Source: a virus
Taxonomy: Duplodnaviria; Heunggongvirae; Uroviricota; Caudoviricetes
Length of the DNA: 4,325 nt
Strand: one strand, 5' to 3'
IMG/VR virus record: IMGVR_UViG_3300018478_000173
The notes under the pieces: model-generated
Seen by the model: the letters and a program-made list of their open reading frames with translations, nothing else
Databases searched by the model: none
What the model was told of the DNA's origin: nothing
Shown: one piece after another, positions 1-3,667 of the stretch
Numbering within the stretch: the first letter of the stretch is position 1
Layout: each line of letters opens with the position of its first letter
Made by a program: the position numbers and the translations under genes

Positions 1-32
1 AAGACTATCACTTAAATAAGTGATATTGGTTG

Positions 33-82
33 TCTGGAGATTCAGGGGGCCAGTCTATCTGGAGATTCAGGGGGCCAGTCTA
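33..82. repeat. Perfect tandem direct repeat, 2 x 25 bp (TCTGGAGATTCAGGGGGCCAGTCTA at 33-57 and 58-82); each copy contains a short inverted repeat CTGG...CCAG
   Basis: Read directly from the sequence; both copies identical over 25 bp and exactly adjacent. Sits in an intergenic stretch where all three + frames hit stops within the first 21 nt of the window. Confidence 0.9.
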
Positions 83-595: not shown

Positions 596-604
596 TGTTA
601 AATT
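596..604 (+). promoter_or_regulatory. Candidate extended -10 promoter (TGtTAAATT) for unit 2; hexamer is the same as I recall for the lambda pR' -10 (TAAATT)
   Basis: TG 596-597, hexamer 599-604; predicted start near A611 in the conserved CCTCACA context; no canonical -35, as is common for extended -10 promoters. Confidence 0.3.
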
Positions 605-610
605 CCTCAC

Positions 611-838
611 AGTTCAGATGGTTGATGCTTGCCTGTCTGAGGGGGAGTTGTTAAAAAAGTTCTGCATGGTGAATCCCCCTGTGCGGAGGGGCGACTGGTG
701 TGATTTGCATCTTTTCTGTTGTAGGCAATGCAAACGCGGGTTCAGGGACACCAGACTGGACTCACCGGGAGGCACCCGGCACCATGTTCATGATGATACA
801 GATACGCAGTGTCAGCCCCTCTCCTGAGGGGCTTTTTT
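611..838 (+). ncRNA. Unit 2 candidate structured small RNA (~228 nt): closing helix 664-671/780-787, hairpin 676-691, divergent core 692-764, hairpin 765-779, terminator 815-838
   Basis: Closing helix GCATGGTG with CACCATGT (one G-U pair). Core contains nested hairpins (CTGGTGT 697-703 with ACACCAG 749-755; TTTGCAT 706-712 with ATGCAAA 730-736). Confidence 0.45.
815..838 (+). terminator. Intrinsic terminator of unit 2: same 7-bp stem, loop TCCT, then T6
   Basis: Hairpin 815-832 followed by TTTTTT 833-838; the only change from unit 1 is in the loop. Confidence 0.8.
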
Positions 839-1130: not shown

Positions 1131-1349
1131 AATTCCTCACAATTCATGAGGTTGATGATTGTCTGATTGATGAGGAGTTTGTTAAAAAAAACGGGCATGG
1201 TGAATCCCCCTGTGCGGAGGGGTGATATCGTATCATTTCCTGTGTGGCCGACTGATATCACGGACATTTGTTCACCGGGAGGCACCCGGCACCATGCAGT
1301 ATACAGAGATTAGGCATACATCCAGGCTCCTCATCGCAGGAGCCTTTTT
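1131..1349 (+). ncRNA. Unit 4 candidate structured small RNA (~219 nt): closing helix 1195-1202/1290-1297, hairpin 1207-1222, shortened core 1223-1274, hairpin 1275-1289, non-homologous terminator 1325-1349
   Basis: Closing helix GCATGGTG with CACCATGC (8 perfect bp). The 5' conserved block carries small insertions relative to units 2 and 3. Core has the stem TGATATC...GATATCA. Confidence 0.4.
1325..1349 (+). terminator. Intrinsic terminator of unit 4: different sequence, same architecture (GGCTCCT-CATCGC-AGGAGCC then T5)
   Basis: 7-bp stem 1325-1331 with 1338-1344, T-run 1345-1349. Replaces the GCCCCTC hairpin used by units 1-3. Confidence 0.7.
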
Positions 1350-1581: not shown

Positions 1582-3546
1582 ATGGCATTTAAACACTACG
1601 ATGTGGTCAGGGCGGCATCGCCGTCAGACCTTGCTGAACGACTGACACAAAAACTGAAGGAGGGCTGGCAGCCATTTGGCAGTCCGGTGGCCATCACGCC
1701 TTATACCCTGATGCAGGCCATTGCGGCGGAAGGTGATGTCACCACACCAGTGGCGGTGACCGGTAATGAGGGTAAGGCGGTGGCTGTCAGTGCCACCAGC
1801 GACCCGGAGTATTACTTTGTTGTGGTTCTGGCAGGGCAGTCAAATGGCATGTCGTATGGTGAAGGTCTTCCGCTGCCGGAGACATATGACCGTCCGGACC
1901 CGCGTATTAAGCAACTGGCGCGCCGCAGTACGGTGACACCGGGCGGTGTCGCCTGTAAATATAACGACATCATTCCGGCGGACCATTGTCTGCATGATGT
2001 GCAGGACATGAGCCGTCTTAACCATCCGAAAGCGGAACTGTCAAAGGGGCAGTACGGAACCGTGGGGCAGGGGCTGCATATTGCCAAAAAACTGCTGCCG
2101 TTTATACCGGCGAATGCGGGCATTCTGCTGGTTCCGTGCTGTCGTGGTGGTTCAGCGTTCACCACCGGAGCTGATGGCACATACAGTGACGCTGGCGGTG
2201 CCTCGGAGAATTCAGCGCGCTGGGGTGTGGACAAGCCGCTGTATAAGGACCTTATCGGTCGAACAAAAGCAGCACTGAAGAAGAACCCGAAAAATGTGCT
2301 GTTTGCCGTGGTGTGGATGCAGGGGGAATTTGATTTTGGCGGTACGCCGGCAAATCACGCAGCACAGTTTGGTGCGCTGGTTGATAAATTCCGTGCAGAC
2401 CTGACGGATATGGCAGGTCAGTGCGTTGGTGGCTCTGCTGGCGGTGTTCCCTGGATATGCGGGGACACGACGTATTTCTGGAAGCAGAAGAACGAATCCA
2501 CGTACCAGACGGTGTACGGCAGCTATAAAAACAAAACGGAAAAGAATATCCATTTCGTACCGTTCATGACGGATGAGAACGGGGTGAATGTGCCGACGAA
2601 CAAACCGGAAGAAGACCCGGACATTCCGGGTATCGGGTATTACGGTTCGAAATGGCGTGACAGCTCAGCCACCTGGACGTCACAGGACAGGGCGAGCCAT
2701 TTCAGCACCTGGGCACGCCGGGGGATTATTTCCGACCGTCTGGCAACGGCGATTCTGGTGCACGCCGGGAGAACCGCTGAATTCATTACCGGAAAACAGC
2801 CTGATATGGTGAGGCCCACCGTACCTTCCGGTGAAGGTCCGGAGAGAGAGGCGGAAGCCCCGGCCAGTAAGCGTACCCTGATGAGTCTGCTGGCATCCGG
2901 CGAAGACCTGGCATCACAGGGCTGGCGCTATTATCACAAACCGGCGGGCGGAGACAGTGTTAACAAAAACATTGCTGAAGCGGTGGTCAGTGATGCGGGG
3001 GCTACGGGAGGTAAGGCTCTGCAACTGAACAAACCGGAAAACCACATCTGGTTTCTGGAGCATGATGCAGCCGGACAGGGGGCGGAGTTACTGAAGAAGG
3101 GCGGACGTGTGAGCGTACGGTTTAAGTTGCCGGGTTCACTGGTGCCGAATCAGTTTGCCCTGGGCATTTACTGGCAGTTGTCGTCCCTGCCGGAGGGGGT
3201 GATGCTGTCAGGAGAAGGTAACGATATGCTGATGTCTTTCTTCCTGCAGACGGATACGACGAACCTGAACGCGATGCATCACAGGAAGCCGAATGCGAAG
3301 CTGGATACATTCGGGGTCTTTGATAACGGATGGCACACGCTGGCTTTTGAGTTTGCCGGAAACAACAGCATTCAGGTGACACCAGTACTGGATGAGAAAC
3401 GGGGAGCGGCGTTCACACTGGTGAAGTCACCGGCATCGGGGGCGGTGGACAAACTGCAACTGACCGATATATCAAAATCGGCGACGTATACGCTGCTGAT
3501 TGACAGCATTGCGGTGGAAGTGAACAGCACAGACACTGCGGCATGA
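1582..3546 (+). CDS. nanS-p: Prophage-encoded sialate O-acetylesterase (NanS-p-like), 654 aa: N-terminal DUF1737-like domain, SGNH/SASA esterase domain with the GQSN motif, and a long C-terminal domain
   Basis: Intact 1965-nt ORF. GGAGGA at 1573-1578 just upstream of ATG 1582. GQSN at residues 85-88 (nt 1834-1845), characteristic of the sialate O-acetylesterase branch of SGNH hydrolases. The N-terminus MAFKHYDVVRAASPSDLAERLTQKLKEGWQPFGSPVAITPYTLMQAIAAEG matches, from memory, the DUF1737 N-terminal domain of NanS-p proteins of EHEC lambdoid prophages. Function is from recalled homology, not a search. Confidence 0.9.
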   Translation: MAFKHYDVVRAASPSDLAERLTQKLKEGWQPFGSPVAITPYTLMQAIAAEGDVTTPVAVTGNEGKAVAVSATSDPEYYFVVVLAGQSNGMSYGEGLPLPETYDRPDPRIKQLARRSTVTPGGVACKYNDIIPADHCLHDVQDMSRLNHPKAELSKGQYGTVGQGLHIAKKLLPFIPANAGILLVPCCRGGSAFTTGADGTYSDAGGASENSARWGVDKPLYKDLIGRTKAALKKNPKNVLFAVVWMQGEFDFGGTPANHAAQFGALVDKFRADLTDMAGQCVGGSAGGVPWICGDTTYFWKQKNESTYQTVYGSYKNKTEKNIHFVPFMTDENGVNVPTNKPEEDPDIPGIGYYGSKWRDSSATWTSQDRASHFSTWARRGIISDRLATAILVHAGRTAEFITGKQPDMVRPTVPSGEGPEREAEAPASKRTLMSLLASGEDLASQGWRYYHKPAGGDSVNKNIAEAVVSDAGATGGKALQLNKPENHIWFLEHDAAGQGAELLKKGGRVSVRFKLPGSLVPNQFALGIYWQLSSLPEGVMLSGEGNDMLMSFFLQTDTTNLNAMHHRKPNAKLDTFGVFDNGWHTLAFEFAGNNSIQVTPVLDEKRGAAFTLVKSPASGAVDKLQLTDISKSATYTLLIDSIAVEVNSTDTAA

Positions 3547-3583
3547 TAAAAAAAGCCGCCAGTTACCGGAATGGACTGGCGGT
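3547..3583 (-). terminator. Strong hairpin right after the nanS-p stop, oriented as an intrinsic terminator for the minus strand (A7 on + before the stem, no T-run after it)
   Basis: A-run 3548-3554; stem GCCGCCAGT (3555-3563) with ACTGGCGGT (3575-3583), 9 bp including one G-U; 11-nt loop. It may still slow plus-strand transcription after nanS-p, but it lacks the U-tract of a classic + terminator. Confidence 0.4.
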
Positions 3584-3651
3584 GGTAATACCCATGGAGA
3601 AATATAAAGGAACGATACTTTCGTGCTCTGTTTTTTTAAATGAAAACAGTT

Positions 3652-3667
3652 CTTATTGTCAACAATA
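3652..3667. promoter_or_regulatory. Inverted repeat TTATTG-N4-CAATAA upstream of the small TM ORF; overlaps a perfect TTGACA hexamer on the minus strand (+ coordinates 3656-3661)
   Basis: Read directly; 6-bp arms with a 4-bp centre. Could be an operator or a divergent promoter element. No binding protein can be assigned. Confidence 0.25.

Follow-up and report, generated by a model that had tools for sequence, protein, structure and literature searches.

Four tandem STnc100-family small RNA genes, each behind a conserved CRP-like dyad, in the late region of a lambdoid prophage

Small RNAs (sRNAs) of the STnc100 family are prophage-encoded and Hfq-binding, and are known in Escherichia coli O157:H7 as EcOnc27 (sRNA103), the copy that lies just downstream of stx2B. 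Strain EDL933 holds eleven family copies that are expressed in uninduced cultures (PMC5331693), and for members in enterohemorrhagic and enteropathogenic E. coli (EHEC and EPEC) both expression in lysogens and Hfq binding have been reported (PMC5331693, PMC4104026, PMC8550237, bioRxiv 10.64898/2026.05.13.724894). According to a 2026 preprint the family is related to PasD1 and PasD2, two sRNAs of EPEC, and the multiplicity of pasD, whose copies lie more than 1.5 Mb apart on average, is due to repeated acquisition (bioRxiv 10.64898/2026.05.13.724894). Tree et al. 2014 described pairs of convergent sRNAs located between a conserved esterase open reading frame and the moron genes that follow the late promoter pR' (PMC4104026). 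Here we analyzed a stretch of 4325 nt (the window) from the Caudoviricetes virus record IMGVR_UViG_3300018478_000173 of IMG/VR. An original prediction, made from the letters of this stretch, had recognized four repeat units, three of them headed by the 9-mer TGTTAAATT, and had interpreted them as iterated late-promoter/terminator cassettes. We found that what looks like an 'iterated late promoter' is a tandem array, so far not annotated, of copies of a known sRNA gene, and that a conserved dyad, possibly a binding site of CRP, lies upstream of each copy.

Searching the window with the Rfam model RF02076 (STnc100; curated gathering score 47 bits) we obtained four full-length matches, each covering model positions 1-206, with scores of 119-142 bits. 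All four sRNAs are on the plus strand. Their 5' ends were set by homology with PasD2, the terminators come from a terminator scan and the lengths are counted from the initial G to the T runs. On this basis sRNA 1 is predicted at 405-569 (about 165 nt; 119.5 bits over 376-571), with a terminator hairpin at 544-563 and a T run at 563-569, and sRNA 2 at 664-838 (about 175 nt; 140.8 bits over 635-844), with a terminator at 814-833 and a T run at 833-838. The third copy would extend over 934-1098 (about 165 nt; 141.7 bits over 906-1104; terminator 1073-1093, T run 1093-1098) and the fourth over 1195-1349 (about 155 nt; 141.3 bits over 1166-1355; terminator 1324-1345, T run 1345-1349). Folds, RNAalifold and the terminator scan recovered the conserved structure of RF02076, namely the closing helix, the internal hairpins and the 3' intrinsic terminator. 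The units are members of the family and end in terminators, and we regard it as virtually certain that they are sRNA genes. The original prediction had described each unit as a pR'-to-tR'-like module; the promoter-to-terminator appearance, repeated four times with good intrinsic terminators on the late strand, is real, but the units are genes of Hfq-binding sRNAs.

The four RNAs are 70-76% identical to each other in pairwise comparison and equally far from the paralogues of strain Sakai. The dyad, the promoter elements, the closing helix P1, two hairpins and the terminator are conserved between the copies, while two internal segments vary. Compared with STnc100, EcOnc27, EcOnc05 and EcOnc06 (the last two assigned to the family by sequence), the array has the same setting, i.e. 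the late region of a lambdoid prophage upstream of nanS-p and the lysis genes, with a convergent sRNA on the minus strand. It also has the scaffold GCAUGGUG...CACCAUGC in common with STnc100. The 3' part of sRNA 4 is EcOnc27-like and can be aligned at almost every base with the EDL933 copy that follows stx2B, which is the homologue of Sakai EcOnc27. It differs from these loci in consisting of four diverged copies arranged head to tail, whose internal variable segments are unlike those of the Sakai copies. PasD1 and PasD2 of EPEC are structural relatives of STnc100 (41 bits) with the same 5' GCAUGGUGAAUCC and an Hfq-dependent interactome, and they lie upstream of the same esterase gene; however, they follow directly after a DUF3927 coding sequence, have a TTGACT -35 and no dyad, and are 64-66% identical to the units. 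Paralogous sRNA genes in head-to-tail order that have individual promoters and terminators but a common scaffold and common upstream sites are familiar from OmrA/OmrB, PrrF1/PrrF2 and LhrC1-4. Those are chromosomal core loci, whereas the array lies in the late operon of a lambdoid prophage and its putative pairing regions are strongly diverged. Among 121 copy runs in IMG/VR viral loci we counted 109 single and 12 double runs and none that was longer, so a four-copy array is uncommon. Single-copy genes in other viral contigs match unit 3 at 99.4% identity. Of 5426 complete E. coli genomes, 79 contain at least 80% of the window, and the nearest matches are bovine and human Shiga-toxin-producing strains. 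A scan of genome contigs with a 15-base pattern returned mostly chance matches, and only one of the inspected loci (L176) is a family copy. We found no published description of the array; the sRNA family is known, but neither its arrangement in four copies nor the CRP-like site seems to have been described. HnrS, a prophage sRNA of 66 nt (PMC13502914), is unrelated.

Next, we asked where the RNAs begin. RNA-seq coverage and Northern blotting define PasD2 as an RNA of 172 nt with its 5' end at NC_011601:741157 (PMC8550237). This position is the G of the 13-mer GCATGGTGAATCC, which also occurs in units 2-4 (unit 1 has GCATAGTGAATCC), and the PasD2 5' end aligns with the G of GCATGGTG in the units. 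By this homology the RNAs are predicted to start at 405, 664, 934 and 1195, and we consider it probable that the main start is at that G. The corresponding starts in Sakai (NC_002695.2) would be 1268451 in Sp5 and 1179774 in Sp4. When the RNAs are folded singly, nucleotides 1-8 pair with CACCAUGC and so enclose a multi-helix domain; in sRNA 2 this helix, P1, closes the 5' domain. RNAalifold on 16 diverse family members likewise starts P1 from nucleotides 1-8 and gives 33 pairs in total, 10 of them with compensatory changes. Within the array, unit 1 (at 409 and 514) carries GCAUAGUG...CACUAUGC in place of the GCAUGGUG...CACCAUGC of the other units, a compensatory change of G-C to A-U in P1. The conserved RNA structure begins at the G. 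The 55-nt stretch between the dyad and the G was considered as a structured leader because of variable inverted repeats around the -35, but RNAalifold returned no conserved pair for it, and the repeats are in different registers. The original prediction had placed the start just after TAAATT; the PasD2 5' end and the point at which the conserved structure begins both lie about 53 nt further downstream.

Directly upstream of each G we located a candidate core promoter. In unit 1 it extends over 369-397 (TTGTCT at 369-374, a spacer of 17 bp and TAAAAA at 392-397), in unit 2 over 629-657 (TTGCCT at 629-634, 17 bp, TGtTAAAAA at 649-657), in unit 3 over 899-927 (TTGCCT at 899-904, 17 bp, TGtTAAAAA at 919-927) and in unit 4 over 1159-1188 (TTGTCT at 1159-1164, 18 bp, TGtTAAAAA at 1180-1188), all on the plus strand. 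Units 2-4 thus have TG at -15/-14. With an approximate sigma-70 score these four occupy ranks 1-4 on the plus strand of positions 1-1600 (unit 3 first and tied with unit 2, unit 4 third, unit 1 fourth), compared with ranks 24-40 for the TAAATT sites and rank 167 for the TAAATG of unit 1. In PasD2 the elements are TTGACT, 17-18 bp and T(T)AAAA(A), the last of which stops 7-8 nt short of the 5' end. A hexamer that resembles a -10 is also present at -12 to -7 of the same G in diverged homologues (AATAAT, AAAAAT or TATTTT, with registers assigned by eye), and a Superficieibacter homologue reads TTGACT-17-TAAAGT at the position. The four elements are predicted to be active core promoters. We also observed a conserved TTGA(C/T)N at 622-627, 892-897 and 1152-1157 (about -43 to -38), which lies 24-25 bp upstream of the -10 and takes the form TTGACA/TTGACT in most homologues (L004, L008 and others in our set of loci). 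This hexamer is too distant to be the -35 and has no -10 at 17 bp downstream; it might be the site of a second factor or a contact for the C-terminal domain of the RNA polymerase alpha subunit. An RpoN signal has been reported at Salmonella STnc100, but a sigma-54 promoter was rejected by eye, as GGCAC lies inside the RNA and no TTGC is found at the required spacing; STnc100 is not mentioned in the Salmonella ChIP-exo supplements.

We then examined the 9-mer that heads the units. An exact search for TGTTAAATK gave four matches on the plus strand of the window: TGTTAAATT at 596-604, 866-874 and 1126-1134, and TGTTAAATG at 336-344. The motif at the heads of units 2-4 and the TAAATG variant of unit 1 had thus been seen correctly in the original prediction, and its coordinates for units 1-3 were right; for unit 4 it gave 1116-1124, a stretch that reads GTGTTGTGA, and this has to be shifted by 10 to 1126-1134. 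Each motif is followed by (C/A)CTCACA(A/G)TTC; the longer form CCTCACA(G/A)TTCA that had been proposed applies to units 2-4, and unit 1 instead has GACTCACAATTCG. Four matches are far more than the chance expectation of 0.07, and none of 200 dinucleotide shuffles reached this number. However, the carriers are four paralogous units of about 260-270 bp each (by alignment; Tandem Repeats Finder gives a period of 270), so the excess reflects common descent and not four independent events, and the test that is informative is whether the family at large conserves the motif.

This test points to a dyad and not to a hexamer. The sequence TGtTAAATT is the left half-site plus spacer of a dyad TGTTA-N6-TCACA. 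It reads TGTTA-AATGAC-TCACA at 336-351 in unit 1, where it contains TGTTAAATG, and TGTTA-AATTCC-TCACA at 596-611 in unit 2 (TGTTA 596-600, TCACA 607-611), at 866-881 in unit 3 and at 1126-1141 in unit 4, always on the plus strand. Each copy matches 9 of the 10 core positions of the CRP consensus, and these four dyads are the only sites of the window with at least 8 of 10 matches to TGTGA-N6-TCACA. Their centres lie 61.5 bp upstream of G405, at -60.5 from G664 and from G934 and at -61.5 from G1195. We collected 62 unique upstream sequences of the family, mostly from 120 IMG/VR viral loci, and for 50 of them a script reported a TCACA-type half-site. Measured from the inferred start, the dyad centre is at -61.5 in 34 of these 50, at -62.5 in five and at -60.5 in another five. 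For the remaining six the script had chosen an earlier TCAT-type match; by eye, five of these show TCACA where the others have it, and in the sixth its place is taken by TCTCA. In three diverged members (L088, L069 and L006) the dyad has stayed in place though the intervening sequence has diverged. Family members that have diverged still share both the dyad and its position. The 21 distinct 22-mers match the CRP consensus on average at 14.5 of 22 positions overall and at 8.5 of the 10 core positions, with 5.5 of 8 for dyad symmetry, and their variation is concentrated in the central spacer. The right half TCACA is present in 19 of the 21 versions, the C at box position 13 is invariant, and the flanks AAATGT and ACA(A/T)TT are symmetric. 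As for the 9-mer itself, its T and A are retained in the wider family, as is the TCACA downstream of it, but the final hexamer base, which would be position -7 of a -10, is T in only 7 of the 21 versions, three of which are the window's own. The family thus keeps the dyad at -61.5 and not the hexamer, which goes against the original assignment of the motif as a -10.

The position -61.5 is the classical one for a class I CRP activator site, as at lac P1; -71.5, -82.5 and -92.5 are the other positions of such sites. The class I CRP promoters likewise combine a TGTGA-N6-TCACA-type dyad at -61.5 with weak core elements, but the left half in the array is degenerate in every family member, and the site is a putative one. 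In copies without the dyad the -35 is the near-consensus TTGACT or TTGATT, and in copies with the dyad it is TTGTCT or TTGCCT; a weaker -35 in the dyad-bearing copies is as expected for activator dependence. For the comparison we used the published CRP-box consensus, in which cyaA is a listed CRP target (PMC3105977). In K-12 the sequence upstream of cyaA reads TGTTAAATTGATCACG, which has the same left half and the same 9-mer TGTTAAATT as unit 2 and agrees with the array dyad at 13 of 16 positions. This stretch is the classical CRP site of cya and also holds the -10 of its P2 promoter, and Aiba reportedly described in 1985 that this P2 -10 is overlapped by a CRP site; a literature search for the sequence of the cya site found none. 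CRP represses cya because its site overlaps the promoter. If this holds, the same 9-mer can serve both roles. CRP would bind the array dyads according to these comparisons, and we give the assignment of the dyad as a CRP-type activator site an even chance.

Beside this subject we note that the right half of the dyad with its flank, at 605-612 and 875-882 (CCTCACAG), is identical to CUCACAGG, a motif enriched in PasD2 targets (Pearl Mizrahi et al.). This identity is probably a coincidence and matters only if the stretch is transcribed, e.g. by read-through or from an upstream promoter.

Putting these elements together, each unit would be an autonomous gene composed of the dyad, a weak -35, a spacer of 17-18 bp and, in its typical form, the extended -10 TGtTAAAAA. 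Transcription would begin at the G of GCAT(G/A)GTG at 405, 664, 934 and 1195 and give an RNA of about 155-175 nt, in which the first 8 nt close a multi-helix domain and a Rho-independent terminator forms the 3' end. The two segments that differ between the copies are probably the target-pairing regions. The most likely role of the dyad, 60.5-61.5 bp upstream, would be that of a class I site for cyclic AMP-CRP as at lac P1, by which catabolite control would be common to the four sRNAs. When the phage grows lytically, polymerase that comes from pR' and has been modified by Q would read through the four terminators. For this account as a whole, with tandem STnc100/EcOnc27/PasD genes, starts at the G and the dyad as a class I CRP site, we lean slightly towards acceptance.

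Several observations weigh against it or limit its support. Every family member has T at box position 4, where a G is key to high affinity (PMC3105977), so a CRP site with such a left half would be of moderate strength at best. In the searchable literature we found no published link between CRP and the EcOnc/STnc100 family, and no mapped 5' end for the array or any dyad-bearing homologue. The constant distance between dyad and start could partly reflect shared ancestry and not selection. The PasD2 end may be a processed one, as it derives from RNA-seq coverage. We searched the EDL933 (NZ_CP008957) Cappable-seq tables (PMC10469882) for starts at 900996 (a PasD-type copy), at 1356289 (the copy downstream of stx2) and at about 1356235 (of the TAAATT type), but among the starts listed only the nanS-p and antisense ones were recovered. 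The proposed -10 TAAAAA, which is TAAAAG in many homologues, is without the near-universal T at -7, and as a hexamer alone TAAATT is the better -10 (5.8 bits versus 1.2 for TAAAAA). A consensus promoter scan gives no plus-strand promoter in the array; neither promoter passes it, because TAAAAA is without T at -7 and TAAATT is without a -35. Finally, the Northern sizes of the Sakai homologues (Tree et al. 2014, PMC4104026) differ between the two kinds of copies. The dyad-bearing EcOnc27 and EcOnc05 run at about 235/247 nt and about 222 nt versus predicted lengths of about 171 and 158 nt (ratios 1.37-1.40), whereas three homologues without the dyad run at about 177, 187 and 222 nt versus 159, 172 and 195 nt (ratios 1.09-1.14). 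The long bands fit equally well with a start about 50 nt upstream, with 3' read-through to the convergent terminator or with cross-hybridising paralogues, and a 194-nt paralogue has the EcOnc05 probe target in common.

The alternative that survives best takes TGtTAAATT as a working extended -10, with starts near 611, 881 and 1141 and 5'-extended isoforms of about 210-230 nt. It draws on the TG at -15/-14 and on the best -10 hexamer score in the array, and units 2-4 match the extended -10 pattern (TG, A at -11, T at -7) by sequence, which the TAAATG of unit 1 does not. The identical 9-mer upstream of cyaA in K-12, the EcOnc27 and EcOnc05 bands at 50-75 nt above the lengths from a G start, and the reach of the Rfam model to 29 nt upstream of the G also speak for it. 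Since the long bands are ambiguous, a weak promoter at TGtTAAATT remains a live reading. However, TAAATT has no -35 at 15-19 bp, the conserved bases are those of the dyad arms, and T at -7 is a minority state (7 of 21), with TAAATG or AATCTG at this place in the very homologues that give long bands. The leader that such a start would produce has no conserved structure, and the conserved fold begins at the downstream G. The bands may equally come from 3' read-through or from the 194-nt paralogue that carries the EcOnc05 probe target. We give this alternative a minor but real chance. Such a promoter could also operate alongside the downstream one, with CRP occluding it as at cya P2.

A second alternative accepts the dyad as functional but assigns it to something other than CRP: another regulator of host or phage, an A/T-rich upstream element, or a junction sequence carried along by recombination. 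The missing key G of the left half, the TTGAC(A/T) conserved between dyad and -35 and, in many copies, a T-rich left arm that is the T run of the preceding terminator are in its favour. It has to face the near-constant TCACA (19 of 21), the invariant C13, the symmetric flanks and a centre held at -61.5 despite divergence, and the dyad occurs in many phage contexts that have no particular phage regulator gene in common. We judge it rather improbable, and a CRP-type site remains our preferred assignment for the dyad.

Still weaker is the proposal that the units hold no active promoter, that the sRNAs are cut from upstream transcripts and that the array acts as a fourfold terminator barrier for nanS-p and the lysis genes. 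The four good late-strand terminators and the failure of the consensus scan to find a canonical plus-strand promoter would fit. Against this, family members are abundant in uninduced lysogens, PasD2 has TTGACT, 17-18 bp and T(T)AAAA(A) directly before its 5' end, an insertion sequence (IS) lies just upstream of the array in this window, and each unit has a terminator in front of it that transcripts from upstream would need to pass in order to supply that unit. In EDL933 there is furthermore a cap-mapped start 99 nt upstream of nanS-p and downstream of the sRNA gene. We regard this proposal as very improbable. What stands of the barrier in the original prediction is that the array needs Q in the way of all lambdoid late operons; a strict dependence of nanS-p on antitermination is doubtful.

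The reading of the units as iterated pR'-to-tR'-like late modules responding to phage Q can be practically dismissed: the -10 of lambda pR' is indeed TAAATT as the original prediction gave it, since the lambda sequence has TTGACT, 17 bp and TAAATT just downstream of Q, and each unit does end in a late-strand intrinsic terminator, but the best -35 partners of TAAATT at 15-19 bp score only -3 to -4 bits (GGGAAA, AAAACG) where lambda has TTGACT at 17 bp, the unit heads are by eye unrelated to lambda pR' except for the hexamer, no Q gene lies within 4-6 kb upstream (methyltransferase, tRNA, helix-turn-helix and IS genes intervene), positions +1 to +6 after the implied start (AGTTCA/AATTCA) are by eye a poor -10 match for a pause element, the transcribed part is a structured Hfq-binding sRNA family and not a 6S/StxS-type leader, and in many phages a single-copy homologue comes after a tRNA gene, stx2B or an ordinary coding sequence. 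The Q-binding element of pR'-type promoters differs with each Q protein. What the array has in common with lambda pR'-6S RNA-tR' and StxS is a short constitutive late-strand transcript to an intrinsic terminator and the identical TAAATT; it differs in having neither the -35 TTGACT nor adjacency to Q, in its RNA family and in a start that is probably 53 nt downstream.

The array is followed in the window by a convergent minus-strand terminator (1384-1362), a nanS-p-type SASA esterase gene (1582-3546), DUF1378, DUF826 and a holin gene. As each unit ends in a strong hairpin and a T run, late transcription must pass four terminators. In lambdoid late operons the Q-modified polymerase ignores terminators. 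The EDL933 nanS-p start at 1356573, cap-mapped in stationary phase, corresponds to window position 1489 approximately (plus strand), which precedes the ATG by 93 nt and closely follows a hairpin and T-rich stretch at 1460-1477. This suggests that the esterase gene has a Q-independent start, and with the EDL933 start lying downstream of the sRNA gene, nanS-p is probably not strictly Q-dependent.

On the minus strand we observed a convergent unit at 1356-1588, a candidate EcOnc08-like sRNA gene, with ATGCCA, a 17-bp spacer and GATAAT (1588-1560), a predicted start at about 1550, and the terminator at 1384-1362 with a T run to about 1356. The cap-mapped minus-strand starts 1356630 and 1356640 of EDL933 map to window positions 1540 and 1550, and by eye the unit resembles the EcOnc08 region of the Sakai prophage Sp4. 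The convergent 'dyad' layout of the published pairs is present here as opposing terminators at 1324-1345 (plus strand) and 1384-1362 (minus strand). AsxR and AgvB (RF02703, RF02702) gave no Rfam match in the window up to an E-value of 1. An 8-bp tandem duplication (GCAAGGAA twice) is found at 1386-1401. Between the esterase stop and DUF1378, at 3548-3665 on the minus strand, there is an element with TTGACA, 17 bp, TTAAAA and, after about 85-90 nt, a strong terminator GCCGCCAGT...ACTGGCGGC with a T run. In position and strand it corresponds to PasA of E2348/69, and its similarity to PasA and Esr41 is weak (25 bits with the Rfam Esr41 model, cut-off 102). The left border of the window (1-57) is formed by the end of an IS3-family element, presumably IS2, whose transposase gene lies just upstream on the minus strand in E. 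coli O22:H8 strain 154 (NZ_CP067426), a strain with the array. The terminal 25 bp of the element (TCTGGAGATTCAGGGGGCCAGTCTA) are tandemly duplicated at 33-57 and 58-82 and are single in strain 154, and relatives without the IS join directly at window position 83. A tRNA scan found no tRNA or tmRNA genes in the window.

The dyad and promoter arrangement may also bear on EcOnc27 itself. A single nucleotide polymorphism 90 bp downstream of stx2B and a T deletion 103 bp downstream of it have been described as predictive of hemolytic uremic syndrome (HUS) (PMC12711010). Counting in the Sakai prophage Sp5 (L244 in our set), the polymorphism at +90 falls into the TG/-12 of the extended -10, and the T deletion at +103 into the spacer between -10 and start, of the predicted EcOnc27 promoter. 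From these positions we infer that the HUS polymorphisms may act on the EcOnc27 promoter. For such counts we note that the published peak coordinates of EcOnc27 and AsxR fit the current Sakai record only after addition of 142 bp, and Sp4 needs no shift; with this offset, old coordinates on the new record would misplace EcOnc27. The most far-reaching version of our account would comprise four CRP-dependent sRNA promoters, a box common to most of the family including EcOnc27, a second role of the box in units 2-4 as a CRP-occluded extended -10 that switches between long and short isoforms, and the HUS polymorphisms as promoter mutations. We hold this combination tentatively, at somewhat less than an even chance.

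In Shiga-toxin-producing and enteropathogenic E. coli, prophage sRNAs of the STnc100 family reach high abundance and interact with mRNAs of virulence and core metabolism, and reviews call the reason for the arrangement of sRNAs at the late-promoter 'moron' site unclear. If the dyad is a CRP site, it would be a case of phage-borne regulation tied to carbon availability in the gut, and a whole class of sRNAs of Stx phages and lambdoid prophages would be under catabolite control. The four-copy array with its diversified pairing regions would then be a compact way for one prophage to place several target specificities under one signal.

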